This document shows, one piece after another, positions 537 through 61,467 of a DNA stretch of 64,000 nucleotides; the stretch's first letter is position 1, and each line of letters opens with the position of its first letter. The translations under genes and the position numbers were made by a program. Below the pieces are notes generated by a model. The model saw only the letters and a list, made by a program, of their open reading frames with translations, had not been told where the DNA came from and did no database searches. The stretch spans positions 67,928-131,927 of the forward strand of contig CAVSSM010000011.1 in the NCBI GenBank assembly GCA_963730605.1. The letters run 5' to 3'. This stretch comes from an uncultured Chlamydiae bacterium. GTDB lineage: Bacteria; Chlamydiota; Chlamydiia; Chlamydiales; SM23-39.

Positions 537-623
537 TAGGATCTGAAATGCAGGAAGCGAAGCGAACGGAATGCGATCCTGCTTCAGGATCGCCAAAGAA
601 CTACAGTTTCCGGAGGAATCCTA
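537..623. mobile_element. 87-bp palindromic element (including TA at both ends) forming the tyrA-pheA linker
   Basis: Ends TAGGAT...ATCCTA; inner hairpin GCGATCCTG-CTT-CAGGATCGC at 573-593; GAAGCGAAGCGAA at 554-566 recurs in the element at 15253-15265. Confidence 0.65.
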
Positions 624-1414
624 TGAAGAAAATCGCATATCAAGGGGTCCCAGGATCATATAGCCATATGACGGCGCTTCGCCTCTTTGGGACCGAGGCT
701 GCTTTCTTGGGGCTTTCCCAATTTTCGGACGTGATCGAAGCCGTTGAAAAGGGATCTGCAGACGCCGCCCTTCTTGCCATCGAGAACACGCTCATCGGGC
801 CGATCTATGAGGTGCTGGATTTAATTGGGGAAAGCACGTTGGAGATCAATGGGGAGACGCCGACGCGGATCGAACATTGCCTTCTGACTCTTCCGGATGC
901 GGAGATCGAAGAGATCCGAACCGTTTATTCTCATCCGAAGGCGTTGGGGCAATGCCTGAAGTTTTTCCGCAAACACCCTAACCTCCTCCCTGAAGCCTAT
1001 GTCGATACGGCAGCCGCTGCCGGCTTTGTCGCGAAAAAGAAAGATCCAAGTGCGGCCGCGATCGCAAGCAGGATGGCGGGATCGATCCATGGGCTCAAAG
1101 TGTGCTTGGCGAACATCGAAGACAACCCCGAAAATTTCACCCGCTTTCTCTTGCTTTCGACAAAACCCTCAGAGGGTCCGAAATGCACGATCCGGATCAC
1201 TTTGGAACATAAGCCCGGAAAGCTCGCGGAGATCCTTTCGGTCATTTCCAAGGAGGGGGTCAATGTCACCTCCATCATCTCTCGCCCCCTCATCGGCCGT
1301 CCGTTCGAATACGCTTTTTACCTCGATCTCGAAACGCCGAGCGTGTCCCTCCTCGAAGAGATCAAGGGAAAATCCAAAACCTTCCGGAACTTAGGCCGCT
1401 ACGGTGCATTATGA
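623..1414 (+). CDS. pheA: Prephenate dehydratase with ACT domain
   Basis: IAYQGVPGSYSH, AIENTLIG, YSHPKALGQC, NFTRF, SRP motifs; ATG at 623 preceded by GGAGG. Confidence 0.92.
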   Translation: MKKIAYQGVPGSYSHMTALRLFGTEAAFLGLSQFSDVIEAVEKGSADAALLAIENTLIGPIYEVLDLIGESTLEINGETPTRIEHCLLTLPDAEIEEIRTVYSHPKALGQCLKFFRKHPNLLPEAYVDTAAAAGFVAKKKDPSAAAIASRMAGSIHGLKVCLANIEDNPENFTRFLLLSTKPSEGPKCTIRITLEHKPGKLAEILSVISKEGVNVTSIISRPLIGRPFEYAFYLDLETPSVSLLEEIKGKSKTFRNLGRYGAL

Positions 1415-2532
1415 GAACGTTCAATCCATCCGCGACAAACGCGGTCAACGCCGAGATGAACCGCTTGCGCAAATCGGGGGTGCGTATCTACAATTTCGGG
1501 TCGGGCGATCCGGTCGTTCCGAACCATCCGGCTGTCTTGAAAGAGGTCGAAAAAGCGGTTAAGGAACAGATAAGCCCTTATGCTCCTGTCGGAGGCCTTC
1601 TCGAGCTCCGCGAGGCGGCGGCGGAATGGATGAATTGCCGTTACGGCAGCCATTTCGGGGTCGATCAGACGATCGTTACCTGCGGAGGGAAATTCGCTCT
1701 CTTTGCCGCCCTCGAGGTACTCTTGAATCCGGGAGAAGAGGTTCTGTTCGCGGCGCCTTACTGGCCCTCCTACCCTGACATCGTACGGCTTGCCGGAGGC
1801 ATTCCAAAGCCGATCGTCCTCGACGAAAAAACAGATTGGAAAATCACTCCGGAGGATATAAAGCGTCATGCTGGAAAAAAAACAGCCGTGTTTCTTTTCA
1901 ATAATGGATGCAATCCGACCGGCGCTCTCTATTCAAAAGAGGAGGTCGCCGCCCTTCTCAAAGCCGCTAATCAGGCGGGGCTTTATGTGGTCGCAGATGA
2001 GGTCTACAGCGAAATGGTTTACGATGGCGCGAAATATGTTTCATGCGCCGCCTTTGCCGAATATGGCTCTCGCACCGTGATCATCGAAAGCTGTTCGAAG
2101 AATTTCGCGATGGCCGGATACAGAGTGGGTTTTGCGTTCGCAGGCCACGAGATCATTAAGAACATGATCGCCGTCCAAAGCCAGTCGACGACCGGAACTT
2201 CCCACATCAGCCAACGGGCGGCGCTCGCTGCTCTTCGCCACTCAAGAGAGGCCGCGGCGCTTGTGCAGGGTGCGATGGACCGGAGGCGGAAGCTCTTTTT
2301 CCGCACCTATAACGAGCTTTTCGGCACCTCGTATAAGCCCCCCGCATCCACCCTCTATTTCTTCGTGAAAATCAAGGGGACCTGCGAGGAGATTCTCAAA
2401 AGGGCCCATGTCGCCTTAGTGCCGGGCAGCGCGTTCGGGCTCGATGGCTATGCCCGCTTTGCCTTTTCGGAGAGCGAAGAGGATATCGTTCTTGGACTGA
2501 AAGCGTTTAAAGCTTTTGAAGAGCGAGCGTAA
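1411..2532 (+). CDS. PLP-dependent aminotransferase class I/II (aspartate/prephenate or aromatic aminotransferase)
   Basis: NNGCNPTG, DEVYSE, SCSKNFAMAGYRVG; ATGA overlap with pheA. Confidence 0.88.
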   Translation: MRTFNPSATNAVNAEMNRLRKSGVRIYNFGSGDPVVPNHPAVLKEVEKAVKEQISPYAPVGGLLELREAAAEWMNCRYGSHFGVDQTIVTCGGKFALFAALEVLLNPGEEVLFAAPYWPSYPDIVRLAGGIPKPIVLDEKTDWKITPEDIKRHAGKKTAVFLFNNGCNPTGALYSKEEVAALLKAANQAGLYVVADEVYSEMVYDGAKYVSCAAFAEYGSRTVIIESCSKNFAMAGYRVGFAFAGHEIIKNMIAVQSQSTTGTSHISQRAALAALRHSREAAALVQGAMDRRRKLFFRTYNELFGTSYKPPASTLYFFVKIKGTCEEILKRAHVALVPGSAFGLDGYARFAFSESEEDIVLGLKAFKAFEERA

Positions 2533-3097
2533 TCAGCGGGCCTAAATCGATTTTGTCTTGTCTTTCTTGCAAAGTCGCATGGACCGCTTTTTGGGCATCC
2601 AGCGGATTGTAGCCGAGATTGAGGAGCGCGCTGACGGCATCAGAGGCCAAATCGCCGCCCTTGACCCCTAAAGAAATCGACGCATCTTTCCCTTTGCCTT
2701 TGATCTTGTCCCGCATTTCGATGACGAGCCGCTCCGCCGTTTTTTTCCCGATGCCCGGAATTTTGCTCAAGATCCGGATGTCTGCGGCTGCGACGGCCCT
2801 CTGGAATGCCTCCAGTTCTATGTGACCGATGATCGCCGCGGCCGTTTTGGGGCCGATTCCCGATAGGCCGATGAGCGTCTCGAAGAGGTCGCGCTCTTCT
2901 TTGATGAGGAAAGCGTAGAGCGTATGGGCATCCTCGCGGACGACGTGAGAGAGGAAAAGATGGACGGCCGATTCTGGAGTGGGGAGTCGCATGTAGGTGC
3001 TAAGCGGGATGGCGAGGCGATACGATATTCCGGCCGCCTCGACAACCGCTTTCAGCGGCTCTTTTTCTAATAAAACGCCTCGGATCGCTTCGTACAT
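2507..3097 (-). CDS. ruvA: Holliday junction branch migration protein RuvA
   Basis: HVVREDAHTLYAF, SGIGPKTA, IPGIGKKTAERL, ALLNLGY. Confidence 0.95.
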   Translation of the reverse strand: MYEAIRGVLLEKEPLKAVVEAAGISYRLAIPLSTYMRLPTPESAVHLFLSHVVREDAHTLYAFLIKEERDLFETLIGLSGIGPKTAAAIIGHIELEAFQRAVAAADIRILSKIPGIGKKTAERLVIEMRDKIKGKGKDASISLGVKGGDLASDAVSALLNLGYNPLDAQKAVHATLQERQDKIDLGPLITLALQKL

Positions 3098-3100
3098 GAC

Positions 3101-3574
3101 TCATCCTTTACTTAAATAATTTCCGCAACAAATGGCGAGCGCTAGGGCATCGGCTGCGTCTTCTGGCTCGGGAGGAGCGGGAAGCCGGAGGAGGCTTTGG
3201 ATCATCCGCTGCACCTGGAACTTGCTCGCCTGGCCTTTGCCTACGACGGCTAACTTCGCTTTTTTAGGAGCATACTCGTAAACGGGAATTTTTGCTCGCG
3301 CTCCGGCAAGAAGGACCATCCCTTTGGCCATGCCGAGCTTGATGGCGCTTCCCGCATTTTTCATAACAAATTGGGATTCGACGGCGATCGCCGTCGGTTT
3401 ATGCTGCTCGATGAGGCTCTCGAGCGCATCGAAGAGGAGGCGGTAGCGCTCCTCAAGGCAAAGCTTCGGGGGAGGCCTAATGCAGCCGAAATCGATGGGC
3501 TCCATCGGGAGCCGGATGATCCCATATCCTGTGATTCTAGTTCCGGGATCGATGCCGAGGATGATGTGCTGCAT
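3101..3574 (-). CDS. ruvC: Crossover junction endodeoxyribonuclease RuvC
   Basis: ILGIDPGTRITGYG, DAADALALAIC; probable ATG at 3574. Confidence 0.95.
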   Translation of the reverse strand: MQHIILGIDPGTRITGYGIIRLPMEPIDFGCIRPPPKLCLEERYRLLFDALESLIEQHKPTAIAVESQFVMKNAGSAIKLGMAKGMVLLAGARAKIPVYEYAPKKAKLAVVGKGQASKFQVQRMIQSLLRLPAPPEPEDAADALALAICCGNYLSKG

Positions 3575-10097: not shown

Positions 10098-11132
10098 ATG
10101 AGATTTTTCCCTCTCGCCTTTTTGCTCGTCGCGGGCTGCAGCAGTCCCTACATGGGAAAGGATCTGTTTGGAGCGGATGAATTCGTTCTCGACTCTTACA
10201 AGATCCGCGAGGGAAAATTTTCCATTTTAGAAATGGAAGGGAAAGAACCGGGGGAGCTCGATGATTCGATGCTCAACGAATACCAGGACAAAATTCATGA
10301 AGACGATGTCCTGCAGGTGGCGGTTTATAACCCGAAGCGGAAAGATGTGGCAGACGCGGTGGAATATATCGGCAGCCGGATCGGATATCGGGTCGTCAAC
10401 GGTGAAATTTCCCTGCCCGACCTGCCGCCTGTAACTGTCGCGGAACTGACTCTCGACCAGGCGAAGGAAAAGATCCAAGTGCTCTACCATGAACATATCC
10501 GCGATACGGAGGTCTTCGTCACCTATAAAGACAGGATCGCAAGAAAAGTGGAACTGGCAGGCCTTGTTTCGCTTCCCAGCGTTCCTGTCGACGGGAAAAT
10601 CCGGCTGTTCGATGTACTTTCCAAAGCTCGGATCCCTACCGAGGCGAACCTCTTCAAAAGCTACATCATCCGGGACGGCTCTTTTCTTCCCGTCGATATG
10701 AACAAGCTCATGAAAGAAGGGGACATGTCACAAAACATCGTCGTGCGAGGAGGGGATAAAATCTACATTGCCGAGCCGTCCGCGGCGACCTTGATGGTCA
10801 TGGGAGAAGTGGGAAGAGAGCGGGTCGTCAATCTCCCATCCGGTTTTATGCCGCTCCGGCAGGCCTTGGCCGAATCGGGCGGGATCCCTTACACGGGGGA
10901 TAAGTCCTATATCCAGGTGATCCGCGGCAATATCGCCAAACCGAAAATCTATACGTTGAGCTGGGAGCATGTTATTCATCTGCCGAATGACAGCCTTCTC
11001 CTGATGCCGGGCGATATCGTCTATGTCGCCGCGAAGCCGATCACTGAATGGAACCGGTTCATTTCGCAGCTTCTGCCCATCTTTGGAGGATTCGATGTGA
11101 TCAGCAAACAAATGCAATTGTTCGTGCCATGA
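10098..11132 (+). CDS. wza: Polysaccharide export outer-membrane lipoprotein (Wza-like)
   Basis: Lipobox LVAGC, Poly_export region (GEISLPDL), SLBB-type repeats, LMPGDIVYV, ITEWNRFISQLLP. Confidence 0.85.
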   Translation: MRFFPLAFLLVAGCSSPYMGKDLFGADEFVLDSYKIREGKFSILEMEGKEPGELDDSMLNEYQDKIHEDDVLQVAVYNPKRKDVADAVEYIGSRIGYRVVNGEISLPDLPPVTVAELTLDQAKEKIQVLYHEHIRDTEVFVTYKDRIARKVELAGLVSLPSVPVDGKIRLFDVLSKARIPTEANLFKSYIIRDGSFLPVDMNKLMKEGDMSQNIVVRGGDKIYIAEPSAATLMVMGEVGRERVVNLPSGFMPLRQALAESGGIPYTGDKSYIQVIRGNIAKPKIYTLSWEHVIHLPNDSLLLMPGDIVYVAAKPITEWNRFISQLLPIFGGFDVISKQMQLFVP

Positions 11133-14100
11133 AGCATCAGAAAAGGCCGCTTCACGATCCCGATGAGAGGGTATTCACCCTATTTGATGTAAAACGGCTT
11201 TACTTGAGCCAAAAGAAGAAAATTCTCAGAGCTTCTTTTTGGGGAGCTCTTCTTGCGTTCAGTTTCATTTTGATCAGGTCTGTTCCAAAATATCAAGTTT
11301 CTGCGACTTTTAAAGAGGCTCCCAAATCCATCGAGGGGACAGGAGGCCTGGAAAAGCTTCTTCTCTCAAATGGAAGCGCAAGCTCTCAAGAGTCTCAAAC
11401 AGCCACTTTGATCCAGTCCAATCAAGTCTTAAAACCTCTGGTCGTCCGGATGGGCACCCAAGCTACGGTGCGCAAAGCGGGCCTTTTGTCTCGGGTCTAT
11501 AAGAGGATCAGGGACAATATCCTTTCCGAGAGAGGGCTTAGCTTAAGCGATGTCGATGATTTCGCCTTCCAGAACGTTGTTTACGATGGGGAGAAAACAC
11601 TAACATATAGCCTCAGGTTTGAAGATTCTGAACATTTTTCTATTGGGTCTGGAAAAAAAACAATTGCTTCGGGATCGCTCGGCTCTTGCGTACGTTTGCC
11701 TGAGGCAGAGCTAACGATTGTCAAAGTTCCAAAAGGGCTTAAGGTCGGGACTCATTACTCCCTTTCTATTCAACCTTGGGTTTCTGCAGTGAATGCGATC
11801 CGTTCCAATTTTCGGATAAAGTGCCTCAAACAGCAAAAATCGATTCATGAACTCAAGTTTTTCCATAGGGACCGATATTTTGGGACGGAGCTTTTGAATG
11901 CGTTGACGGAAGAATATCGGAGATATTTAAAGCGGGACCATGATCAGGTTGTCCACGAGCAGCTCAGTTATTTGCAGCAGAAACAAGAAGAAATATGTGC
12001 CAACATGTCCTCGGTTTTCGACGAGTATACAGAATATTTGCAAACCAATCTCAGCCGATCGGGACAATTGGGCTTAACACAAGAGATCGGAGGAATCACT
12101 AAGGAATGCAATGTGCTTGCTAATAAAATCTCTTCGATCGACTTGGAGCTGGATCGGTTAGTTCGAATGGAAGTGGATCAAAAAGCATTTGTTCCAATGG
12201 ATGATACTCCTTTTTCACGCTCTCTCAAAGATACCTTGAGCGCAATATCGGAGTTGAAACAGCAGCGCGATTTAATCGAGTTGTCATTGCCATCTCAAAG
12301 CCGCGCTCTTAATGAGCTGCAGTATGAAAACAAAAAAGGGGAATTGAAAGAGGTTCGAGACCAGCTTTGCGCGATGCAGCATCTTCTCGATGGAATTGAA
12401 AAGCATACGCCGCTTTCTCAGGACGCGTTATTCGATGCGGGAGAATATCTCGGAGCTTGGGCTGGCCGTTTAGCTGATTCCCAAGAGGAAGACAGAAAAG
12501 GGCTGGCTGAGTATCTCGAAAACGCCGTCCGGCTTCTTTCTATGCAAGAAAAAATGGTTCAGGAACAAATCCATTATGCCCACGACACTCCAGCCGCGTT
12601 CAAAGGCATCGATTTAACGACGGCCCGGGCTCTTTTCCTAGAATACTACAAAAAGCTCGATCAAATCGCAGAAGGGGTAAGCCATTTTTCTCGCTTAGCG
12701 GATGAAATTGAGAGAGGCGATTTCGAGATCAGTTCTTTAAGCGCCGTGCTCTTGGATCCCCTAAGCCAGCGTCTGATTCAACAAGCAAGCGAGATTGCCC
12801 TCAAATTGAAGGATGAAAAACATCATAGCGAAAAAGAAGGAAGCCGGTGGGCAGAGGAGTTGTCGCTGCAAAAAAAAATCCTCAAAGAACATCTGGATCA
12901 ACTTTTTAAACTCGAACAAGTGAAATCCGATCTAGTCCAAAATAGGATCGATGCTTTGCAGGCAATCAGATTCGGCTCCATTTCGGGGCAAATTTCCGTT
13001 TTGCAAGAGAGACTGGCCGATTCCGTCAAAGAGCGGAAGACCGCGCTTTTGAAGGAGAAAACAATCCTGGAAGAAAAAGTGAGGCAAATTCTAAATGGCC
13101 TCACCGATATTCCCGAAAGGTGGCGAAGGGAGAAATGGCTGAACTTAAAGAGCCAGATGGGGATCAAAATGGTCCAAGGGTTGACCGAACTTGTCGAATC
13201 AAAGACAATTAGCTCTCATCTCCACCATGTCGAATCAAAACCTCTCGATATTGCGACCCTTCCTACCACTCCCTGTTCCCCAGGGCTTTTGGTCAAAGCC
13301 TTCCTGGGTGCCATGCTGGCCGGATTCTTTGTGTTCTCCCGCGCCTTTCTCGGGGCGGTTTTGAAGGGATTCCCCTCAACGAAAGAAAAACTTTGTGCGA
13401 TGGGATACCCTGTTCTCGGCGAGATCTCAACGGTTTGCGATGGTCCCGGGACAGAGCCTCGCGGGGCGGATCTGGAAGCCCTTCGGCAAATATTTCTTTT
13501 CCTCGACAAAGAGCCCATACCGGGAGTGATTGAAAAAACGGGAATTGGCTCCTCAGATTTTTCAGCTGGAGCGAGGGACATGGCCAAAGGCAAGGCTGCG
13601 GAAACACGAGAAGGTCCAGTGGACCTTCGCAGTGCGGAGCAGATGAGCACAGCGAATTGCCTCGGAAGCGAAGATGAAAAATCTGAGTCAAAGCCGACGC
13701 CGCACCAAAACCGATTTTTCAATCGCGAGCGGTATAAAGTGAAAGTTGTTGGCCTTATCGAAGGCAAAGGCCCCGATTATTCTTTTGCGCTGGCAGAGCA
13801 TTTTTCCCGCATGTCCTTGCGCCCACTGGTCATCCGATGCGATTTCAACATGAAGTTCAACCGGGAAGACCTGCCGGGGGTCTTGCAGGTTTGGAAAGAG
13901 GAGATCTCCAGCCCACCTCTCAAGAGGAGGCAGGGCTACGATCTTCTCACGTCCGGCGGATTCACCCCTTACGGGGCGGAAGTCATCCGGTCGCTTGCAT
14001 TTCAAAACTCACTTGATAAGTTTAAAAAAGAGTATGACTTTGTCTTGATGGTCTTTCGCTCGCCGCTGAACCTCGCGGACAGCTTGGCGCCTCTTTCCCT

Positions 14101-14221
14101 TTGCGACTATGCGATCGTCACCGTCTCTGGAGAGCCAACGGAGCAGTTGACACCGTTTATCGATTGGGCTTACCATGGAGACATGTGCCGTTTAGCCATT
14201 CTCACAGCGAGCTCTCCATGA
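11129..14221 (+). CDS. Wzc-like polysaccharide co-polymerase with degenerate kinase domain and a 73-aa in-frame element insertion
   Basis: N-terminal TM followed by PKYQVSATF, long coiled coil, second TM, YPVLGEI, C-terminal P-loop-like domain; ATGA-coupled to wza. Confidence 0.75.
13517..13735. mobile_element. 219-bp palindromic element inserted in frame in the wzc-like gene
   Basis: Imperfect TIR ATACCGGGAGTGATTGAAAAAACGG / CCGATTTTTCAATCGCGAGCGGTAT; inner IR CTCAGATTTTTCA / TGAAAAATCTGAG; central GAAGGTCCAGTGGACCTTC. Confidence 0.85.
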
Positions 14222-15177
14222 CAGGCAAGCGCAAAAAAATTCTTGTAGCAGGAGGAGCAGGATTCCTAGGCTCTCATCTCTCTCTGAGGCTTTTGAAAGA
14301 AGGCAACGAGGTTCTATGTGTCGATAATTTCTACACAGGCAGCCGCGATAATTTGCTCTCTTTAATGGAACATCCTCGTTTCGAAGTGATGCGCCACGAC
14401 ATCTGTTTCCCTCTACATGTGGAGGTGGACGAGATCTATAACTTTGCCTGCCCGGCATCCCCTTTCCACTACCAGCGCGATCCCATCCAGACGGCGAAGA
14501 CCAGCTTTCTCGGAGCTCTTCACCTCCTCGGATTGGCCAAGCGCCTCAAAATCAAAATCTTTCAAGCCTCGACGAGCGAAGTCTACGGCGATCCCCATAT
14601 CCATCCGCAAACCGAAGAGTATTGGGGCCACGTCAATCCGATCGGCATCCGATCTTGCTATGATGAAGGAAAGCGGTGCGCTGAAACTCTCTTCTTCGAT
14701 TATTACCGAGTCCATGGCCTTCGCATTAAAGTCGCACGCATCTTCAACACGTTCGGCCCAAGGATGCATCCGAACGATGGCCGAGTTGTCTCCAATTTTA
14801 TTGTCCAAGCCCTTCGCAATGATCCTATTACCGTATACGGAGAAGGCAAGCAAACCCGATCTTTCTGCTATGTGGACGATCTGATCGATGCAGTGATTCG
14901 GATCATGGATACGCCAGATAGCATCACAGGGCCCTTCAACATTGGGAATCCGACCGAGATGCCAGTCATCGACCTTGCGCGGCAAGTTCTGGCCTTAACC
15001 GGCTCTTCTTCCAAGATCGAGTTTGTCCCTTTGCCCTCTGACGACCCGAAACAAAGGCGGCCTGACATTCGGTATGTAAAGGAAGTTTTAGGATGGGAGC
15101 CGAAGGTTCCTTTGCAAGAGGGTCTCAAGGCGACCATCGATCATTTCAGGAGCGTTATTAACCCGCTAGGCAAATAA
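14218..15177 (+). CDS. UDP-glucuronate decarboxylase (UDP-xylose synthase family)
   Basis: [44 protein letters not shown]. Confidence 0.93.
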
Positions 15178-15323
15178 GAGAAAACAAAGGGCACTAGCGA
15201 AGCGCACGAGGTCCCCCCGACGCATCGTCGGGAGGGGTGTGAAAGCCAGATCGAAGCGAAGCGAATCGGCCCGAAGGGAGCCGCAGCAAGCCCTTTGTCT
15301 CTTATTTGAAATAGCGGGTTAAT
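15157..15323. mobile_element. 167-bp palindromic element overlapping the decarboxylase stop and the DMT start
   Basis: TIR ATTAACCCGCTA / TAGCGGGTTAAT; inner IR AAATAAGAGA..ACAAAGGGC / GCCCTTTGTCTCTTATTT; REP-like hairpin at 15210-15238. Confidence 0.85.
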
Positions 15324-40059: not shown

Positions 40060-42009
40060 ATGCTCCTAGCAACATCGCGCCTGTCCGTTTCCCCCATTTG
40101 GCAACTGCAAAAATTGGCGTATAACCGCCTGGGGGTGGAAAATTGGGCGAAAGGGCGCGTCCCGTTCCTGATGACCAACAATTCCCGCTTTGCCGCTCAA
40201 GTCGCCGACATCGCATGTGCGGCTTTTCAGAGTCAGCCTTTTACTCTCTTAGAATTAGGCGGTGGCTGCGGGAAATTCGCATTTTTGTGCATCAACGAAC
40301 TGCTTCAGCGTAAGGCAAAGGTCCGCTACTTTCTTACAGACGCCGCGGAAAAGAATGTGGCTTTTTGGGAAAGCCATCCACGGCTCAAACCTTGGATCGA
40401 TCAGGGGATTTTGCAAACGGCTGCTCTTGACCCCCTATCTCACAATCCCCCTCGCGCGGATTTCATTGTGGCTAACTATTTTTTCGATTCCATCCCTCAG
40501 GATCTCTTCCGGGTCGAAAAAGGGGTCCTTTTGGAGGGGCAAGCCTCACTTTTTTCTTCCCCTTTTGCGGACGTGGAGAAAGCGGACTGGGAAGACCCGA
40601 GCCTGCTGGCTAAAATCCGGATCGAGATTTCTTTTCGCCCCTTGGAGGAAAATCCCTACCCCGAATTTCCGGAAGCCCGGGAGGTCCTCGAAGAATATTC
40701 CCGATCTGGCGATCTTTCTTTCTTATTTCCCATCGGTGCCCTCACGGTGATCCGTCGCATCGAATCCTCCTCCAGAGGTGATTTTCTTATTTTGGCTGCC
40801 GATCGCGGGTCTTGCAGAGCCAAGGGGCTCCCAAAGTCGCATCGACTTTGGGGAAAAAAAGATTTAAGCAGTATGTCCCTAATGCCCAGCCTTCATGGGA
40901 GCGCTTTTTCATTTCCGGTCAACTTTCACTCAATCGGCCGCTATATTGAGAAAAAAAAGGGCCACGCCCTGTTTTCTCAAAGCCAGACGGCCGATTTTTG
41001 CCTCGCGCTTCTCTCCAATTTTCCCCAAAGTCGATGCGACTTTGGGGGCCCCTTATCCCAGATCCCAAAAGCGTGGTTGGATGCTCAACCGTTCGGCCCC
41101 TTGAAGACGGAGGCTGCTGATTTCAAGGACATCCTGAAACGGCTTGAAGAGGCCAACTGGGATGCGGCGCTTTTCTTTTCTTTTTTCGACCTGATTGTAG
41201 AGTCCTTTGCCCAAGCCAAAGAGAGGGAAAAAAAAGAAATGGTTGCAGGGATGCGCCGGATCTTGGATCGTTTTTTCTCTCTCTTTGGAGAAGAGTCTCT
41301 TCTATTGGAAAGGTTAGGCCAGTTTTTTACAACGATCGGAGAATTGTCCGAGGCAGCGGCCCATTTTCAAATGGCAGCTCTTTTAAAAGCAATGCCTCGG
41401 CAAAGTGATTCCGCGGGATACTATTTGGAGGTAAATCCCCCCCGTGGCGATGTGCTGCAAGTCGGCGGTCCAAAGAGGTCGTTCAAGGGGGTCCGCAACT
41501 ATAAATATATCGCTTGGAGCGAATCTAGGAAGAGGCTTAGAGAGTTCGATACGATCCTCATGTTCCCGCCCCGGGTGATCGTAGAAAAGCAACAACCGGC
41601 ATTTGTCCGGGAAATCGAAGAGCGGTTTTCGCTTAAGCAGATCCGCTACACCGACAATGACATCGAGGCTTTCCTATCGTCTCTCAGCGGGCAAACCGAT
41701 CCAACTCACGTTTTGCATTTTTTGGGTGAATTAAAGAGGAAAAAAAATATCAGCAGAGAACAATTCGATCGATTTGCTAAACGGCTCGGCTTCGACGCTT
41801 TGGCTCAAAAAGAAGACAATTTTTTCGAAATCCTGATGATTTGTCTGAAAAAGCACATGAACCCGGGCGCGGTCCTTCGAGCGTTCCTCCCTGGACTTCT
41901 AACCTATGACGATCCGAGATTTTTTGAGAAAATAGCGGTTGACCCCTATCTAGAAACGGAGGAGATATCCGAGGCCGCAGGCGTTTGGCTCTCGATCAAA
42001 AAATTATGA
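40060..42009 (+). CDS. SAM-dependent methyltransferase-like protein (MidA-like N-terminus) containing two REP-like insertions
   Basis: LELGGGCGKFA, VANYFFDSIPQD, HGSAFSFPVNFHSIG. Confidence 0.6.
   Translation: MLLATSRLSVSPIWQLQKLAYNRLGVENWAKGRVPFLMTNNSRFAAQVADIACAAFQSQPFTLLELGGGCGKFAFLCINELLQRKAKVRYFLTDAAEKNVAFWESHPRLKPWIDQGILQTAALDPLSHNPPRADFIVANYFFDSIPQDLFRVEKGVLLEGQASLFSSPFADVEKADWEDPSLLAKIRIEISFRPLEENPYPEFPEAREVLEEYSRSGDLSFLFPIGALTVIRRIESSSRGDFLILAADRGSCRAKGLPKSHRLWGKKDLSSMSLMPSLHGSAFSFPVNFHSIGRYIEKKKGHALFSQSQTADFCLALLSNFPQSRCDFGGPLSQIPKAWLDAQPFGPLKTEAADFKDILKRLEEANWDAALFFSFFDLIVESFAQAKEREKKEMVAGMRRILDRFFSLFGEESLLLERLGQFFTTIGELSEAAAHFQMAALLKAMPRQSDSAGYYLEVNPPRGDVLQVGGPKRSFKGVRNYKYIAWSESRKRLREFDTILMFPPRVIVEKQQPAFVREIEERFSLKQIRYTDNDIEAFLSSLSGQTDPTHVLHFLGELKRKKNISREQFDRFAKRLGFDALAQKEDNFFEILMICLKKHMNPGAVLRAFLPGLLTYDDPRFFEKIAVDPYLETEEISEAAGVWLSIKKL
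40822..41054. repeat. Two inverted 36-bp REP-like hairpin units (40822-40857 and 41019-41054)
   Basis: TTTTCCCCAAAGTCGATGCGACTTTGGGRGCCCCTT; the copies differ at 1 base. Confidence 0.88.
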
Positions 42010-42031: not shown

Positions 42032-42176
42032 CTCGACTTTGTACAATTTTTGGCGAGCAGATCCAGAGGAAGCGCTCTGCAATTTTTTTCTTTTTTTGCG
42101 AAATTCATAGCCGAAGGCGCTATTTATGAGCAAAAAAAGGAAAAAAGGGCCAGCGATTCTCTCAGAGATGCCGTCA
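42032..42176. mobile_element. Right-truncated copy of the element at 59744-59905
   Basis: 145 bp with 2 visible differences from 59744-59888. Confidence 0.9.
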
Positions 42177-42184
42177 TAAGTCTC

Positions 42185-46338: not shown

Positions 46339-46559
46339 TAAACTCAAATGACATGAAGAATCGGGAATATGGCTAGGAGGCGCCCAGAATTTGAGCCAGG
46401 CGAGAGCCGGCGCCGAAGCAGCTCAACTTGAATAAGTTGGGCGATGCAGGCGGGCTCAAAGGCTGTGGCTGCCCGATGCCGCCACCGGGGTCCCCGAAGA
46501 CGCATCGTCTTTGTGGTGGGGCGCCGCCAGAAACCGATTCCTCATGTTTTTTGAGTATA
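46339..46559. mobile_element. 221-bp palindromic MITE-like element in the tsaB-lon divergent intergenic region
   Basis: TIR ACTCAAATGACATGAAGAATCGG / CCGATTCCTCATGTTTTTTGAGT; shared core 46390-46460; REP-like unit 46487-46521. Confidence 0.85.
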
Positions 46560-46614
46560 ACTCACTTGCTTTTGGCTTGGCGATATTCCATAAATAAAGT
46601 TATGAGAGGTACAT

Positions 46615-51619: not shown

Positions 51620-51987
51620 GAACCTATCCGAATAAATTATTAACACAACATACTCTATGTCAATGTTAAACGCTTGCTAGATTCGAGTCATTGAAAAGAT
51701 CAGCACGGAGAAAAATCGAAACAAAGGTCGAGAGTTCGCAGAGGAATAAGAATTCGAGTCGGGACGGGACCTTGCCCTGAGCAAAGGAGGTGCCTCTGTC
51801 CTTACTGCTCTCGAGATCTTTGAAGAAGAGATAAAAGGTAGATCAATTTCCTTTACTCAGGACGGGGTCCGTCCTTACTCCAAATTTCAATTCTCTCTCG
51901 CCCTCTCGATCTCAATTTTGATTTATCTCTGCGCTGATCCTTCTCAGAAGCCTGTTATTTGCGAGAAGTATTTATTCGGATAGGTTC
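51620..51987. mobile_element. 368-bp palindromic MITE-like element
   Basis: Perfect 18-bp TIR GAACCTATCCGAATAAAT, AA flanks, long imperfect internal inverted arms. Confidence 0.85.
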
Positions 51988-52170: not shown

Positions 52171-54549
52171 ATGGTGAAAATAATGTCTTCTATTGATCAT
52201 TTTTCTCAAACTATCGCTCCGGCCACTGCTCCCTGGACTGCTAGCCAACTTGCAGGAGCTTGCACCCCACACGTCGATGCGGAATGTATACGTGAGATCC
52301 GGTTAGCGACGGTGTTCGATAATCATGGCAATCGAGATCGGCAAGATATTTCAGATTTAACTACTGCAAACCATAAAAGATATGCTGACAAGTGGAATTT
52401 AAGGCATGACGTCGTCACAGAAAGTTTGGTCGCCGGTCAATGTACAAATCCCCTTACCCAGATGGCTGTGAGCTGTTCGGCCTATTGGAATAAAATTAAG
52501 TATTTCGTGAACTGGTGCAATGAGCCAGCGAGGCAAGGAATTGAAGAATGGGCAATCTATGCGGATGACGATGCGGTCTATACGAATTTTGAAATCGATC
52601 CCGATCAGGCCATTGACGAGCTTCGCGGCGAAAAAGACACCAGCTTCATCATAGCGATTGAAGGACCCGCAACGCCCTATCCAGAAAATGAAGGAGGCTC
52701 TGCAAGAGGTTCTATTATTGGACCGGCCAATACTGGGGTCATGATCGTAAGGAAGGATGCGAAAGGGTGTGGCGTCATTGAGAGAATTTGGAATAAGCGA
52801 GATAAAGAAACACCGAAAGATCGATTCGATCCGACTTGTCCGACCCGGGGCATCTGCAAGGATCAAAGGCATGGAGATGAACAGGGCGCCCTCGATGAGG
52901 TCCTATATGGGGACATCCCCTCATCGATAGGACGCGACGTCACTCGCATCTCACCCCGCGACGTTTTTTCTCCTACAAGATCCCATATCGCTCTCAATAC
53001 ACTTCACCGCGGCGGCTGTGTGCAGGCATTTAAAAACGGGGACATCGGCGGCCCCTTCGACATTATGCTTCACGATCTCAAAATTAGCCGAGAAGGGATT
53101 TGGCACCCAAGCGATTGGATCGGGCAGACTGCAGGATATCCCATGTACGGCAGAGATCTCTCGTACCAACCACTAGGCGATTGTAAAGAAGACGCAGAGA
53201 AGCCAATCGAACCGATTCGAATCAAAAAGGTGAAAAACCTACTCACAGCTGCTGACTTCTCTGTATCCAACCCCCCAAGAGCAAAAGAGAAAAAAAAGAA
53301 TCAATTTTTATATAAACAGGAATCTAGGACAACTGAAACGTCTCTACATTCTCCCACTACTTGCCGTCTTCCAATCGGCCAAGCGCGCGCGTCTCGCAGT
53401 CTGATCCTGGGGACAGCTTATGACAATAGGGGCGAACCAAAACGAGACGCTATCTCTGGCCTAGTGAACGCGAACCATGGCGAATATGCTCAAATATGGG
53501 GCATGCGCCATACCGTCTCATCGGAAACCTTGCTCCAGAATGCCTGCACCGATCCCTATACTGAGACAGCCGCCGATTGCGCACCCTATTGGAATAAGAT
53601 TCAACTATTGCGAGAATGGCTCAAAGAACCGAAGGAACCTGGAGTGGAAGAAGAATGGTTCTTCTTCGTCGATGACGATATGGTCGTCACCAATCTAGAG
53701 ATCGATCCTTATCTCGCGATCGATCAGCTCCGGAAAGGTGATGAGAGTGTCGTCATTCTAAGAGACGTCGTCAACTGGCTGCCTTGGAGATTCCCAAAAG
53801 ACGTAAATGATGATCGGACAGCAGTCAATACAGGCTTGATGCTAATCAGAAAAGACGATGCAGCCAGAGATTTCATCGAAAGAATTTGGAGTCATCGACA
53901 GGATGCCGTAAACAACCTGGAAGAGCCTGTTTGCCCGACTCTCGGGATGTGCAAGAATCAAAACTCTCTCCATGAGCAAGAAGCTGCAGCAAAAGTCTTG
54001 AAAGAAGACCCGAGTTTAATGGATCGGGTTGTAGCTGTTCCCCTTCCACGCGATACCAGCGCACCCTGCAGAATAGCTGCGAATACGTTCAAACGAGAGG
54101 GATGTTTCGTAAGAAAACAGCACAATTGGGATGCGAATGCATTCAGCTACTATGAAGGCGATCGATGGAGTCCATGGGGAGCATTCCGCCCTGGAGATTG
54201 GATGGCGCAGACGGCTGGAGTTCCTATTTGGGGAAAATTGATTCCACTCCAAGCTGCTGAAGCTTGCCATGATGACCCCAATATTCCCGAAACCGCTATT
54301 CGAAAACAATATATCGAAGACTTGCTTGCCGAAAGCAGCAAGACGAGGAAATCCAACACAACGAATTCCCAGGGCGAGAGCATCAAAATGCAAAATTCAG
54401 TTGACCCGCTAACCTCCTACGGGCAAGTGAGTGGCAACGCCGGTTCGGGTGAACCGCCGGAGATACTCTCTGACCAAGTAGGCAACATAGGGGGTCCGCT
54501 GACATTCCGAATTCAACATTTGAAATGCAAAATTCAGTTGACCCGCTAA
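52171..54549 (+). CDS. Protein with two tandem GT34-like (GMA12/MNN10-type) glycosyltransferase domains
   Basis: Each half has ANH..YA..W, YWNKI, DDD..TN, NTG.M..RK, IERIW and EQ.A. Confidence 0.7.
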   Translation: MVKIMSSIDHFSQTIAPATAPWTASQLAGACTPHVDAECIREIRLATVFDNHGNRDRQDISDLTTANHKRYADKWNLRHDVVTESLVAGQCTNPLTQMAVSCSAYWNKIKYFVNWCNEPARQGIEEWAIYADDDAVYTNFEIDPDQAIDELRGEKDTSFIIAIEGPATPYPENEGGSARGSIIGPANTGVMIVRKDAKGCGVIERIWNKRDKETPKDRFDPTCPTRGICKDQRHGDEQGALDEVLYGDIPSSIGRDVTRISPRDVFSPTRSHIALNTLHRGGCVQAFKNGDIGGPFDIMLHDLKISREGIWHPSDWIGQTAGYPMYGRDLSYQPLGDCKEDAEKPIEPIRIKKVKNLLTAADFSVSNPPRAKEKKKNQFLYKQESRTTETSLHSPTTCRLPIGQARASRSLILGTAYDNRGEPKRDAISGLVNANHGEYAQIWGMRHTVSSETLLQNACTDPYTETAADCAPYWNKIQLLREWLKEPKEPGVEEEWFFFVDDDMVVTNLEIDPYLAIDQLRKGDESVVILRDVVNWLPWRFPKDVNDDRTAVNTGLMLIRKDDAARDFIERIWSHRQDAVNNLEEPVCPTLGMCKNQNSLHEQEAAAKVLKEDPSLMDRVVAVPLPRDTSAPCRIAANTFKREGCFVRKQHNWDANAFSYYEGDRWSPWGAFRPGDWMAQTAGVPIWGKLIPLQAAEACHDDPNIPETAIRKQYIEDLLAESSKTRKSNTTNSQGESIKMQNSVDPLTSYGQVSGNAGSGEPPEILSDQVGNIGGPLTFRIQHLKCKIQLTR

Positions 54550-54680
54550 CCTCCTACGGGCAAGTGAGTGGCAACGCCGGTTCGGGTGAACCGCCGGAGA
54601 TACTCTCTGACCAAGTAGGCAACATAGGGGGTCCGCTGACATTCCGAATTCAACATTTGATGCGCTCGCCCTGGGAATTC
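54363..54680. mobile_element. Palindromic element containing a perfect 137-bp tandem duplication (54386-54522, 54523-54659)
   Basis: TIR GAATTCCCAGGGCGAGAGCATCAAA / TTTGATGCGCTCGCCCTGGGAATTC. Confidence 0.88.
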
Positions 54681-57157: not shown

Positions 57158-58060
57158 ATGCTAGAGTTTAGCCAGGCCGTGCCGCGCTTTTTGTCCCACC
57201 TTGGGCTCGCGAGCGGGGCCTCGGAGCACACCCTGAGAGCCTACCGGCTCGACCTGGAAGCCCTTGCCGTATTCGCAAAGGGAGAGCCGATTTCCAAACG
57301 GCTCATCCGCCGCTATCTGGCCCACCTCCATGAAAGCGGCATGAGCGTCCGGACCGTTTTAAGGCGCCTTTCGGCCCTTAGGAGTTTTTTTAAATTCGCC
57401 ATGCGGGAAAAACTCGTAAAGCAAAATCCCTTAGAAGAGATCGAGAGCCCAAAGAAAGAAAAAAGGCTTCCGGTATGGATCACCTACGCCGAGGTGGAGA
57501 TCCTCTTTTCACAGCCCGATACTTCGACCTATTTGGGCCTCCGCGACCGGGCCATCATGGAGCTTTTCTATAGCTCGGGACTCCGTTTGAGCGAGCTTGC
57601 TTTTTTGAGCCGAGGCTGTTGCGACTTGAAAAATCAAACGCTCCGCATCTTCGGCAAAGGGAAGAAGGAGAGGCAGACGCCCATTACGAAAACGGCGGCG
57701 GAATGGATAAGCAATTATTTAACCCATCCCGAGCGGCCGTTCATTGAAAAGGATCCGGAGGCCGTTTTTTTAAACAAATGGGGCATGAGGCTGACGCCCC
57801 GTTCGATCGATCGGAATTTCGCGGCGTATCTCAAGGCAAGCGGACTTTCCGAGAGGATCACGCCCCACACGATCCGCCACAGCATCGCGACCCATTGGCT
57901 CGAAAATGGGATGGATTTGAAAACGATCCAGATGCTCCTCGGCCATACAACGCTTTCGACAACGACGATCTACACGCATGTTTCCGCCAAGCTAAAACGG
58001 GAAGTCTACGACAAGGCCCACCCTCGGGCAAAACATATTGCGACCGGTCAAAAAGAGTGA
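57158..58060 (+). CDS. xerC: Tyrosine recombinase XerC
   Basis: RDRAIMELFYSSGLRLSEL, GKGKKER, PHTIRHSIATH, LLGH, IYTHV, HPRA. Confidence 0.88.
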   Translation: MLEFSQAVPRFLSHLGLASGASEHTLRAYRLDLEALAVFAKGEPISKRLIRRYLAHLHESGMSVRTVLRRLSALRSFFKFAMREKLVKQNPLEEIESPKKEKRLPVWITYAEVEILFSQPDTSTYLGLRDRAIMELFYSSGLRLSELAFLSRGCCDLKNQTLRIFGKGKKERQTPITKTAAEWISNYLTHPERPFIEKDPEAVFLNKWGMRLTPRSIDRNFAAYLKASGLSERITPHTIRHSIATHWLENGMDLKTIQMLLGHTTLSTTTIYTHVSAKLKREVYDKAHPRAKHIATGQKE

Positions 58061-58321
58061 ATCTGCCGGCGTCCTACCCCAAAGATGATGCATCTTTTGG
58101 GGACCCCTCGGACAGCCACTGAATTTGAGACCCGCCTGCACCCCACCCCAAAGACGATGCGTCTTCGTGGACCCCGGCGCTAAACTTTTCAAGTTTAGCT
58201 GCTTCGACGCCGACTTCGTCTGGCTCAAATTCAGGGCGCTGCTTCGCACAAAAAATGTCTCCTAGACATTTTTTGTGATTCCGCAGTGGCAGTTTTCACT
58301 CTTTTTGACCGGTCGCAATAT
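58035..58321. mobile_element. 287-bp composite palindromic element supplying the xerC stop codon
   Basis: Perfect 27-bp TIR ATATTGCGACCGGTCAAAAAGAGTGAA; REP-like units at 58077-58107 and 58141-58176; shared core in reverse orientation. Confidence 0.9.
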
Positions 58322-59734: not shown

Positions 59735-59743
59735 ATGCAGTAT

Positions 59744-59905
59744 CTCGACTTTGTACAATTTTTGGCGAGCAGATCCAGAGGAAGCGCTCTGCAATTTTTT
59801 TCTTTTTTTGCGAAATTCATAGCCGAAGGCACTATTTATGAGCAAAAAAAGGAAAAAAGGGCCAGCGATTCTCTCGGAGATGCCGTCACAAAGTACAAAG
59901 TCGAG
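59744..59905. mobile_element. 162-bp palindromic MITE-like element (complete copy)
   Basis: TIR CTCGACTTTGTAC / GTACAAAGTCGAG; T-rich and A-rich inner arms. Confidence 0.9.
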
Positions 59906-60318: not shown

Positions 60319-60337
60319 AAAATTGTTAGAACGTCTG

Positions 60338-61101
60338 CTAATGCAGCGGCGGCGCCGTTTCTTCGTTGCTGCGGCCGTCCCTTCAAGCACCTGGCTCTCC
60401 TGCCAGTAGTGGATGCGGGAGCAATGTTCGCAGAAGACGAGACGCTCTCCCTTGCGGACGAGGTTTTCATGCTGCGCAGTAAGGGCGATATGGCAGCCGC
60501 TGCAAGTGCGGTTCTCGATGGGAACGACGACGCGGTCTTTTTTATTGTTCAAGAGCCTTTGATAAATCCTGCAGGATCTCTGGATCGGCTGTTTTTGCAA
60601 GGAGGTCGCGGCCCGTTTTAAGCTCGCTTCCTTCCTGCGTTGATCATCCGGATGCTCTCTTTGATCTCATTTTCGAGATTGACGCTGCTCTCTTCAGACT
60701 GTTGGAGCGATTCCTTGATTTTTTCGAGAGATTTCTTCCTCAAGCGCCCGCTTGTCGATCATGTCGCTCGCGATCTGTTCGGTCGCGATCCTTTCGCGCT
60801 CGGAAGAAGTCATCTCATGGGTCAATGCATTGAATTCGTCGACTTTTTTGACCGTGTTTTGCTTCGCCTCGAGCTTTTTAATCTTTTCTTTAACTTCCCC
60901 GATTTTGGTTTCCTGGGCGGCGATGCTCCTGTTCAATTCGCCGATTTCCGCTTCCTTGTCCACTTGTTGAGTCCGTAGTTCCTGCCGCAGGGAATCGATA
61001 TGGGCAAGCTCGCCCATCCGCTCCTTCTTGAGGCGCATGAGACGAATCATCTTCATATCATATTCTTGAATGTCGAGAATGACCTTAAGGGCTTGATGCA
61101 T
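60338..61101 (-). CDS. Coiled-coil C4 zinc-ribbon protein (CT398/CdsZ-like), frameshifted; 3' end approximate
   Basis: ILDIQEYDMKMIRLMRLKKER, CSGCHI..FCEHCSRIHYW. Confidence 0.85.
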
Positions 61102-61200
61102 GCGAAAACCTATGGTTACCTAGGTATCCTAATGCTCCTCTGAAAATACTGCAAGGTTCAAATTTCAATTAGGAGGACTCTGGAGAAAAGATTGGGGCCT

Positions 61201-61290
61201 GGTTTTAAAGAAATATCTTACTAAGGTGCCCGAAAAGACCGAGAAGCCGCAGCCATTGCCTATGCCACCTCTTGCACGCTTGTCGCCGCC
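61201..61290 (+). pseudogene. Degenerate duplicate of the glyA 5' end
   Basis: TTAAAGAAATATCTT..AAGGTGCCCGAAAA.GACCGAGAAGCCGCAGCCATTGCCTATGCC matches about 62779-62865; ATG region missing. Confidence 0.85.
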
Positions 61291-61304
61291 CCCCTATGAT
61301 TGTC

Positions 61305-61467
61305 TATACCACGCCCGCTTAGGTTGTGTGAATTTTGACAGCGGATTTTGCGTTCTAGTAGCGTTGCGGAGATCGCCGTAAACTTTAGTATGTTAACAAG
61401 ATCGAGCAATGCGCTGGGGCGCAAAAGGCGCTGTCAAAATTCACTCAAAATGAGTGGGCGCGGTATA
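61305..61467. mobile_element. 163-bp palindromic MITE-like element
   Basis: TIR TATACCACGCCCGCT / AGTGGGCGCGGTATA; inner IR GTGAATTTTGACAGCG / CGCTGTCAAAATTCAC. Confidence 0.88.

Follow-up and report, generated by a model that had tools for sequence, protein, structure and literature searches.

How RPE-like coding palindromes arise, i.e. palindromic repeats lying in frame in genes as in Rickettsia, is a long-open question, and it is raised again by a 64-kb stretch (hereafter the window) of the 2.2-Mb, 83% complete genome of an uncultured chlamydia-like soil bacterium (G000). A preliminary description of the window had listed 13 elements of 87-368 bp with terminal inverted repeats (TIRs) and hairpins. 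All 13 starts coincide with real features, and 11 of the elements have related sequence elsewhere in the genome and inverted ends, of which 42032 retains a single one; the feature at 537 has no TIR. Repeat cover was found at 12 of the 13 starts by window-to-genome BLASTN, the exception being 51620, for which this search returned no other copy. One element (32073-32242) and two in-frame hairpins (40822 and 41019) had been missed. The features are given below, with strand where one was assigned; gaps are relative to G003, a same-genus genome (~90% identical, 1.15 Mb compared).

548..620, plus strand: what is left (73 bp) of a MIRU-like start-codon repeat of 75-80 bp; 73-bp gap in G003.
5..1414, plus strand: portion, inside the window, of the gene in which prephenate dehydrogenase, dehydratase and ACT are fused (Pfam PDH_N, PDH_C, PDT, ACT).
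13518..13734, plus strand: IS630-type MITE with internal hairpin modules, 73 codons in frame in the wzc-like gene.
11129..14221, plus strand: wzc-like host gene, 1030 aa, so named in the preliminary description and for its position after a polysaccharide export gene.
15161..15319: MITE, ends approximate, providing the last codons and stop of an NAD-dependent decarboxylase-like gene (14218-15177).
30975..31146: intergenic TA-flanked MITE, with modules common to 46341 and 58036.
32073..32242: intergenic 170-bp MITE with IS5-like ends and a 2-bp duplication.
35927..36093: MITE with ISAzo13-like ends, flanked by duplicated TTA and located where the gene for an outer-membrane protein has its stop codon.
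38116..38297, minus strand: 182-bp MITE, 62 codons in frame in the MetQ lipoprotein signal.
40822..40857, plus strand: free 36-bp hairpin module, 12 residues in frame in a methyltransferase-like gene (40060-42009).
41019..41054, minus strand: second free hairpin, inverted, in frame in the same gene.
42032..42179, plus strand: truncated one-ended copy of the 59744 family, 97% identical to 59741-59891.
46341..46557: TA-flanked MITE at the start of a tsaB-like gene; 218-bp gap in G003.
51620..51987: single-copy 368-bp element with inverted ends resembling the 32073 family and an AA duplication.
54370..54673, plus strand: MITE derived from ISAs1, within which 137 bp are exactly duplicated in tandem.
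58036..58320: MITE of the TA type, built of stacked modules, from which xerC (57158-58060) takes its final codons and stop.
59744..59905: MITE from a family of 17 whose duplications are 5 bp long, its ends resembling a resident IS4-like element.
61307..61465: TA-flanked MITE between genes, one of ~21 in its family.

The elements are short, multi-copy and free of transposase genes, as is characteristic of MITEs. Across the genome, about 10% of which is repeated sequence, 339 MITE-type loci, mostly 140-400 bp long, make up 2.83% of the sequence, and the family clusters include ones of 31, 28, 22, 21, 18, 17 and 13 copies. Scored inverted-repeat pairs numbered 87 on contig C2 versus 2 on a codon-shuffled copy, and the elements at 13517 and 38115 fold into long stem-loops (z = -5.2 and -11.5, respectively). 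Hairpin modules of 30-80 bp are stacked within different MITE families, and the same modules occur free in genes. Target-site duplications, resolved in all families but five small ones, are family-specific (2, 3, 4 or 5 bp) and perfect in e.g. 13/13 (the 2-bp duplication of the 32073 family), 22/28 and 19/21 members; in the TA families the insert equals the core plus 2 at most empty G003 sites. The earlier statement that most elements of the window are bounded by TA or other 2-3 bp repeats was too broad: perfect repeats of this length flank five of the 13 (TA at 30972, 46339 and 61305; TTA at 35924; AA at 51620), the flanks are imperfect at 13517 and 58035 (CA/TA), 38115 (3/4 match) and 54363 (7/8), and no flanking direct repeat was seen at 59744.

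Scanning of window ORFs revealed no transposase, as already noted in the preliminary description; many are present in the rest of the genome, which carries intact IS630, ISAzo13, IS5, IS4-like and ISAs1 elements, 98-100% identical between copies, with IS copies nested. Element ends were compared with those of resident IS elements over 18 positions (99th percentile of the null: 10-11). The matches exceed the null for seven of 15 families and for the 54370 (18/18 to ISAs1) and 35927 (14/18 to ISAzo13) elements, and are borderline or absent in the other eight families. The 18-member wzc-type family averages 15.2/18 to IS630a, the 13518 element matching a 14-copy IS630 at 16/18, and the 32073 ends match the resident IS5 at 12/18; the metQ family (8.5/18) and a mostly in-frame 5-member family (8.6/18) fall below the 99th percentile. 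IS630 is a likely mover of the TA families, in line with the earlier suggestion. The MITEs would move in trans, likely by means of the genome's own IS transposases, the pairing of each family with one transposase being putative.

Elements supply gene termini, as had been claimed. The decarboxylase-like protein has an element-derived C-terminus unlike that of G003 (167-bp gap at 15161), the 54370 element provides some 60 codons at the C-terminal end of the GT34 gene (52183-54549), whose C-terminus likewise differs from G003, and xerC ends 8 codons into the 58036 element, the G003 match ending at residue 294. The 54363 element has two partial loci and no second full-length copy in the genome. 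At 35927 (170-bp gap in G003) the end of the outer-membrane protein is unchanged. The 40822 hairpin, whose core matches the genome 110 times, corresponds to a 12-residue gap in 4/4 relatives aligned; the 41019 hairpin is absent from G003, and an X4 contig runs across it without a gap.

Gene fusion, the other outcome proposed earlier, was confirmed in one case, tyrA-pheA, albeit with a different cause. The 548-620 insert deletes the tyrA stop and brings tyrA and pheA into a single frame of 525 aa, which begins before the first position of the window; in G003 the two genes are separate, with a 4-bp stop/start overlap and the 73-bp gap. Among 104 matches, no other covers more than 53% of the query. 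The 87-bp TIR element placed at 537 was rejected, its left 'arm' being host sequence conserved in G003, and the true insert of 73 bp has no terminal inverted repeat. The start-codon repeat has seven copies in G000 and seven matches in the part of G003 searched; its 77- and 80-bp units open with a start codon, end at the start of the next gene and hold a mini-ORF coupled at -4 spacing. The tyrA-pheA fusion is the product of this repeat and not of a MITE. The MIRU-like unit normally keeps adjacent genes coupled; the tyrA-pheA copy, 7 bp shorter than the 80-bp unit, fuses them, the likely course of events being an insertion and then slippage between short direct repeats.

As previously described, the copies in tyrA-pheA, wzc and metQ lie in coding sequence with uninterrupted frames, and relatives lack the segments. 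All three are absent from a closer strain (run X4), in which tyrA-pheA shows the same 73-bp gap and the other two elements are skipped. Residues 824-897 of the wzc-like protein are missing from the matches of relatives; the gene has no Pfam or NCBIfam match, and its neighbour (10098-11132) matches a polysaccharide export protein. A recurring peptide is encoded by the wzc-type family, eight of whose 11 long matches lie in the same frame within open frames of at least 388 aa; other MITE families are read on both strands. The metQ insert separates the first residues of the lipoprotein signal from its hydrophobic core and is absent from the MetQ N-termini of 8/8 relatives, and the 38116 element has a 100% identical copy elsewhere in the genome.

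Genome-wide, at least 26 of 281 loci of at least 100 bp are spanned by a reading frame (uppP, recD2, E1, E2, menD and folC among the hosts), and free 36-bp hairpins are in frame besides. As translated, in-frame inserts would add 12-105 amino acids to ordinary proteins, in conserved genes with insert-free orthologues. No second close copy was found of uppP, menD, folC, recD2, metQ or tyrA-pheA. The UppP insert (79 residues) lies in a length-variable loop and leaves the invariant residues of the family intact; in the structure model, which predicts it to be a disordered loop, 221 residues have pLDDT of at least 90 and residues 133-208 are below 50. The RecD2 insert (272-372, 105 residues) is missing from all relatives matched on both flanks.

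Orthologous G003 flanks were available for 99 of 308 loci, of which 80 are empty, 17 filled and 2 partial in G003. The empty sites fall outside G003 ORFs (33), in the last 12 codons (15), in the first 12 codons (14) or internally (18, several of these calls depending on doubtful G003 starts or weak identity), whereas gene interiors make up 77% of the genome. Read-through is observed at 17 of 32 sites (9/18 internal, 8/14 N-terminal) versus a chance level of 8.4%, and the number of in-frame survivors is about that predicted by a passive filter. Lengths divisible by three are found in 15/19 in-frame and 35/114 intergenic copies; the lack of bias in the latter suggests a survival filter, not design. 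Of the earlier interpretation, several mobile families in frame in real genes are supported, but not one system 'generating' useful peptides.

We regard it as probable that these are recent mini-transposons, likely moved in trans by resident IS transposases, the genic copies being likely survivors of purifying selection. Persistence would be limited to copies that keep the frame and have landed in a loop, a linker, a terminus or a signal sequence. The long proteins would be made and still function, and signal peptidase may remove many N-terminal inserts along with the signal: 10 of 16 N-terminal cases, hand-picked once the pattern was seen and scored by a crude hydrophobicity rule (one unscored, counted as a miss), have a hydrophobic core, compared with 251 of 1214 genes (p = 0.0004 by Fisher's test), and the 5' ends do not differ in TA content. 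The inserts are most probably tolerated baggage, as described for Rickettsia, and new function is not demonstrated by these results.

A bolder reading, which we consider rather unlikely, is that of a modular mobile system adapted to life inside proteins, with frame-preserving hairpin cassettes that move by a non-RAYT route between MITE families and into genes, a haven in signal sequences and repeat-length changes that fuse coupled genes within one species. Signal sequences would be a haven because the inserted peptide is cleaved off by signal peptidase and so removed at the protein level without an intein. If this were true, the origin of RPE-like coding palindromes would be directly testable, since there are cognate transposases as well as strains with empty and strains with filled sites.

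It is improbable that the elements, chiefly their inner hairpin modules, are shaped to be coding-compatible, genes being a regular niche and some peptides or the fusion maybe useful. Module indels are divisible by three in 36 of 60 cases, which are not independent of each other, above the need of a passive filter on whole elements, and modules of 30, 33, 36, 39, 42, 45, 51 and 72 bp recur; however, so do those of 46 and 80 bp. Free hairpin matches lie in called genes in 29 of 47 cases, in several frames, but six of the 29 are a single tandem array read as a spurious ORF. The same-frame wzc-type peptide and the open frames of intergenic copies (1.13 per element versus 0.86 in shuffles) also favour this reading; against it, one of the eight long wzc-type frames is no fusion, the upstream gene stopping within the element, intergenic lengths are at chance, only three of 18 testable in-frame sites are common to G003, and the youngest high-copy families (170 or 172 bp) stay outside genes except at gene ends.

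Still less probably, the host genes have suffered mild damage, and it is only weak selection, in a host-bound bacterium undergoing an IS burst, that lets the inserts persist. The abundance of repeats, the near-identical, nested IS copies, inserts of up to 105 residues and the 9/18 internal insertions scored as frame-breaking are consistent with this; some apparent breaks, however, are assembly errors (a single frame is insufficient for 24 of 555 orthologues), and host proteins are in most cases 72-97% identical to G003 over matched stretches. The depleted gene interiors and the approximately sixfold enrichment of read-through among survivors imply that selection is at work.

That N-terminal inserts do not become translated extensions, ribosomes restarting at a start codon near the element end so that mature and precursor proteins hardly change, is very improbable. 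Six of 14 N-terminal insertions are out of frame with the downstream gene intact, pheA retains its own start and a purine-rich stretch upstream, and an in-frame Met in 9/15 scored inserts makes restart inside the element possible; as a rule, however, restart predicts read-through near 8%, against the 8/14 seen, and it does not account for the internal inserts (uppP, recD2, E1, E2, wzc-like). Assembly artefact is hardly credible and already largely refuted: 1-bp errors exist (e.g. 5039, 5509, 44852, 46004), but an independent short-read contig of run X1 spans 194-661, fusion included, without a single difference, one of run X2 reaches from 45926 to 46556 and so takes in the left junction of the 46341 element and its body, an identical wzc-like protein, insert included, is on record on a separate 46-kb contig, and in another genus a metQ-type element occupies the same position of a long gene. 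The grounds that the preliminary description named against itself (single-copy elements, orthologues carrying the segments, unspanned junctions) did not hold.

Inserts of the RPE type have been a Rickettsia curiosity without a known mover; the same outcome is now caught under way in another intracellular phylum, with candidate transposases intact in the genome and close strains differing at insertion sites. The cases measure how much foreign peptide housekeeping proteins tolerate (a predicted 79 residues in a UppP membrane phosphatase loop and 105 in RecD2), and tyrA-pheA is a dated, strain-level case of a repeat-made gene fusion. Annotators of chlamydial MAGs should be aware that peptides derived from repeats lead to inflated protein lengths and to false families.

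No chlamydial report of such in-frame MITE/RPE-like inserts was found in the literature searched. The MIRU of mycobacteria, as far as the accessible part of the source describes them, are start-codon units whose short ORF is coupled to the next gene (PMC12548453). The chlamydial repeat is likened to them by layout (77-80 bp unit at start codons, coupling at -4 spacing, tandem copies), in another phylum and with length variants (73, 75 bp) that lead to in-frame fusion or extension. Intragenic copies occur among REP elements of the GTAG/CGTC type (PMC3733652, in part). Like these, to the extent they are described there, the chlamydial hairpins are short, GC-rich, single, paired or arrayed and sometimes in frame in genes, but most of them (63/110) lie inside MITEs. 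A RAYT/IS200-type transposase was not found in the 83%-complete genome, where one weak PF01797 match (E 3e-5) lies in the upstream part of an open frame with a different main part, which we take to resemble a sugar isomerase.

RUP/IS630-Spn1, Correia/NEMIS and ERIC/RU-1 are described, in the sections available, as MITEs with cognate IS ends and ORF fusions, and, as set out for the 107- and 155-bp Correia forms, length variants free of stops enter genes while stop-rich ones stay intergenic (PMC2229807). TIRs, TA or other duplications, resident-IS-like ends and stop-free genic versus stop-rich intergenic variants are thereby common to both; the chlamydia differs from what is described there in having ~20 families, belonging to no fewer than five IS types, within a single genome of 2.2 Mb, inner modules in common, and long inserts in single-copy housekeeping genes. 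A review, in its accessible part, calls in-frame MITE fusions 'not unusual' (PMC10969869). RPEs (Ogata et al. 2000, 2002) are, in the same partial sources, palindromic repeats, many in frame in conserved Rickettsia genes (PMC10969869, PMC2229807); an RPE in Gmk leaves activity intact, and their target duplication is listed as unknown (PMC2229807, Table 1). The earlier comparison with RPEs is apt: in both cases an intracellular bacterium has conserved genes with in-frame copies of several palindromic families, likely as neutral loops, and one family is read mostly in one frame. The chlamydial elements thus appear to work like RPEs, a likeness of behaviour and no claim of membership; compared with RPEs as portrayed there, they are longer (to ~350 bp, 105 residues), consist of exchangeable modules, show clear duplications of the target, end in sequences that match intact IS elements of the same genome, and differ between close strains.

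The preliminary description had listed 13 palindromic elements in the window, which is C11:67928-131927 of the genome; real features lie at all 13 starts, and 12 of them have related sequence elsewhere in the genome, the one at 51620 being single-copy. Inverted repeats are indeed above chance, with 87 inverted pairs on contig C2 vs 2 on its shuffled copy. The 87-bp element with inverted ends drawn at 537 is in reality a 73-bp insert at 548-620 with no inverted ends, and 42032 is a one-ended fragment, not a complete element. The flanking direct repeats of 2-3 bp ascribed to most elements are perfect in five of the 13. The description had overlooked an element of 170 bp at 32073 and, at 40822 and 41019, two in-frame hairpins of 36 bp. 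The ends of the decarboxylase, GT34 and xerC genes, said to be supplied by elements, are gene-end insertions of MITEs, the ancestral end of xerC being deduced solely from match limits. An 89-bp stretch of the 5' end of a glyA-like gene (62779-62868) is duplicated at 61205-61293, immediately left of the MITE at 61307. Separately, 56-bp direct repeats (93%) of a tRNA-like 3' end (22931-29329) enclose a segment of about 6.3 kb that carries a P4-type primase gene (23593-25296) and is likely an integrated satellite or plasmid-like element.

De novo detection across the genome (G000; 2.22 Mb, 12 contigs, 83% complete) yielded end clusters of 31, 28, 22, 21, 18, 17, 13 and 11 members together with smaller ones, with family-specific target duplications of 2, 3, 4 or 5 bp. 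Copy counts that scored palindromic copies twice were left out of the family sizes. Families and fragments amount to 339 loci, 62.8 kb or 2.83% of the genome, an undercount, since the 237-bp uppP element was caught only via its inner module. G000 encodes intact IS630 transposases of three types (14, 6 and about 9 copies) as well as intact ISAzo13, IS3, ISAs1, an IS4-like DDE_Tnp_1 element and an IS5-type element. Ends were compared over 18 terminal bases, random 22-mers giving a 99th percentile of 10-11. Those of the wzc-type family, an 18-member IS630-type MITE family, match the 14-copy IS630a at a mean of 15.2/18, and those of the 31-member family at 12.3/18. For the IS5 element there are two matching families (11.5-12 bases), for ISAzo13 two (11.5-14.5) and for the IS4-like element one (11.7); the window MITE at 54370 matches ISAs1 at 18/18. 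Ends are borderline or unmatched in 8 of 15 families, the metQ family among them. We infer from these comparisons that the MITEs are likely mobilised in trans by resident transposases. In the TA-type families genome-wide, TA stands on both sides of 52 of 74 cores; in the remainder the outer base alone differs in 21 and the inner base in one. Among autonomous IS630a copies, 14/14 are flanked by TA at both ends. Random mutation after insertion would not be expected to act so one-sidedly; insertion in these families may be blunt or relaxed.

Elements are also nested: ISAs1 lies in a 59744-type MITE that itself lies in another MITE, ISAzo13 lies in a 61307-type MITE, and a MITE lies in a MITE.

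C1:446774-448364, nested insertion
C1:551573-553107, nested insertion
C1:251681-252019, nested insertion

A group II intron reverse transcriptase/maturase is present three times in the genome (C1:286480-288440, also on C4 and C8). There are further an ORF of 6629 codons, to which repeats on C10 are related, and expanded LRR and HECT-domain gene families (C11:8-19897 and C10:54203-83770; C2:39926-58110).

Recent movement is indicated by G003, a same-genus relative about 90% identical, of whose ~1.7 Mb 1.15 Mb were covered for empty and filled sites and 1.27 Mb for the comparison of insertions and gaps. Orthologous flanks were found for 99 of the 308 loci of at least 60 bp, and 80 of these sites are empty, 17 filled and two partial; G003 has its own insertions, from some families common to both genomes. 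X4, a closer strain from a different study, is without 548-620, 13517-13732 and the metQ element (182 bp, 38116-38297), each absence being seen on one low-depth contig. An X1 contig spans 194-661 with zero differences; the runs X1-X3 possibly come from the source study and serve as an assembly check, not as independent strains. The 54-bp gap of X4 at 40814-40867 is not an ancestral empty site, host codons present in G003 being removed as well, and may be a later loss. Copies of the metQ-type element occur at 100% identity; the element was matched in 8 of 18 same-family genomes and in none of 12 others, and in another genus (G017) it lies four residues into a frame of 2128 codons. The wzc-type peptide has a short weak match in one of 350 other genomes, a sample without G003, where the peptide is present. 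An in-frame element common to G000 and G003 (G000 C1:495567-495800 and L183) gained a 72-bp module in the G000 copy, so this coding insert grew in place from 54 to 78 codons. In G001 (L093, contig C37) the wzc-like frame extends into downstream decarboxylase sequence, which is either a fusion or a mis-assembly.

At a first pass over the 308 loci, 35 are spanned by an ORF, 38 contain a gene end, 27 contain a gene start, 23 have coding flanks on both sides and 185 are intergenic. Those 23 loci were not accepted as disruptions, most testable ones lying at gene junctions. A stricter pass over 281 loci of at least 100 bp, which omits some confirmed cases and retains a few doubtful ones, kept 26: 15 N-terminal, eight internal and three C-terminal. 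The hosts include rlmD, menD, folC, kdsB, both the E2 and the fused E1 of a 2-oxoacid dehydrogenase, recD2, uppP, a metal-binding lipoprotein, a TraH-like protein and a sulfatase-like protein. The proposed in-frame insertion in the wzc-like gene is borne out by a 73-residue insert absent in the relatives searched, where the recD2 (about 105 residues) and uppP (79 residues) inserts are missing too. For uppP, menD, folC, recD2, metQ and tyrA-pheA there is no second close copy in the genome. In a UppP model built with 22 sequences the membrane core is confident and residues 133-208 are disordered, low confidence being expected for any unaligned insert. Searches of solved structures put the inserts of UppP, RecD2 and E1 between the stretches that match or ahead of them, without residue-level position.

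Are such inserts designed to be read through, or do they survive a filter? The 80 sites empty in G003 fall outside its ORFs in 33 cases, in the last 12 codons in 15, in the first 12 codons in 14 and internally in 18; the genome consists of 77% gene interiors, 7% termini and 16% non-coding sequence. TA and TAA targets within stop codons likely account for the excess at gene ends. Nine of the 18 internal cases and eight of the 14 N-terminal ones are read through, vs 8.4% for a random catalogue element in a random frame; several internal calls, read-through and broken alike, are shaky, with doubtful starts and 30-61% identity. Of the 19 in-frame copies, 15 have a length divisible by three, vs 35 of 114 intergenic ones, and the latter count leaves the idea that whole elements are built as multiples of three unsupported. 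By rough arithmetic from the 33 non-coding survivors, about 13 internal in-frame insertions would be expected if all were kept; since nine are seen, tolerance suffices. Most likely the inserts are tolerated rather than useful, translation through them being predicted from sequence.

Several N-terminal inserts adjoin signal-like sequences. A hydrophobic core adjoins the insert in 10 of 16 hand-picked N-terminal read-through cases vs 251 of 1214 genes (p = 0.0004), and the gene classes are alike in TA counts over codons 2-15. The metQ insertion, rightly described as in frame, adds 62 codons after the first residues of a lipoprotein signal and ahead of its core; signal cleavage of the MetQ leader would remove their product. 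For some N-terminal inserts, restart within the element is an alternative to such read-through. No report of a MITE in a signal peptide was found in the non-subscription literature searched.

The tyrA-pheA frame, also correctly called in-frame, arose differently. In G003 the tyrA stop overlaps the pheA start by 4 bp, and in G007, another genome, the two genes stand apart in the opposite order. The repeat involved has units of 75-80 bp, with a start codon at the beginning and a purine-rich stretch at the end immediately before the host start, and forms tandem arrays. Units of 77 and 80 bp retain the -4 coupling; the window copy, at 73 bp, is one above a multiple of three and thereby fuses the two frames, with about 25 residues as linker. 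We propose that an 80-bp unit was inserted and then lost 7 bp by slippage. PheA may also be made separately, since its own start is kept. Among 104 matches no other protein aligned beyond 53% of the TyrA-PheA query, and three distant proteins of 671-732 aa have both Pfam domains. The MIRU design, in the portion of PMC12548453 consulted, has the same layout; compared by description, the likeness extends to start-codon repeat, unit layout and tandem arrays.

The hairpin modules are the least ordinary part of the case. The length variants within a family are distinguished by hairpins of 23-80 bp, which also occur in other families; 36 of 60 module indels are multiples of three, the 46- and 80-bp modules being exceptions. 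One hairpin core has 110 matches, 63 within MITE loci and 47 free, and 29 of the free ones lie in called genes (six of them in one spurious ORF). A search for a RAYT as mover yielded no convincing candidate in the 83% complete genome. The free hairpin also forms 36-bp tandem arrays (C5:65883-66230, C7:8765-9079, C2:62448-62510), and the C5 array reads as a 12-residue repeat within a 266-aa ORF with a signal-like start.

Compared with short-read contigs, the window has 1-bp assembly errors at 5039, 5509, 6298, 44852 and 46004, and 24 of 555 G003 orthologues require more than one frame; individual frameshift calls are hence uncertain. The dnaJ, tsaB-like and lon genes look split (43662-49030), and at least the breaks at 44852 and 46004 are assembly errors, since short-read contigs (three and two runs, respectively) differ there by 1 bp. 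A cdsZ-like gene (60694-61101), whose match covers just the first 127 of 251 profile positions, may likewise be split by an assembly error. Profile matches to CdsZ and the CT351 family, both under cut-off, are consistent with the chlamydia label, and the runs best matching G000 are soil metagenomes, no RNA data set being listed among the matching runs.

No chlamydial MITE or RPE report was found in the non-subscription literature searched; the main text of a survey (10.1101/2024.01.18.576219) has no "chlamyd", and its supplements may list MITEs of Chlamydiota. According to the sections consulted of a review (PMC10969869), it is "not unusual" for intragenic MITEs to form in-frame fusions, which RPEs raise to high frequency; Delihas, in the excerpted text, describes such fusions likewise for Correia and ERIC, the end match of RUP to IS630 and a Gmk that retains activity with an RPE (PMC2229807), and intragenic REPs are on record in the part seen of PMC3733652. 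In the tests applied the elements described here behave as bacterial MITEs, and they work like RPEs, the likeness being one of behaviour, not of sequence homology. The RPE-like situation is real, well supported and of recent activity, and the phylum is a new one for it; it offers candidate movers, polymorphism between strains, modules shared by families and one fusion made by a repeat.
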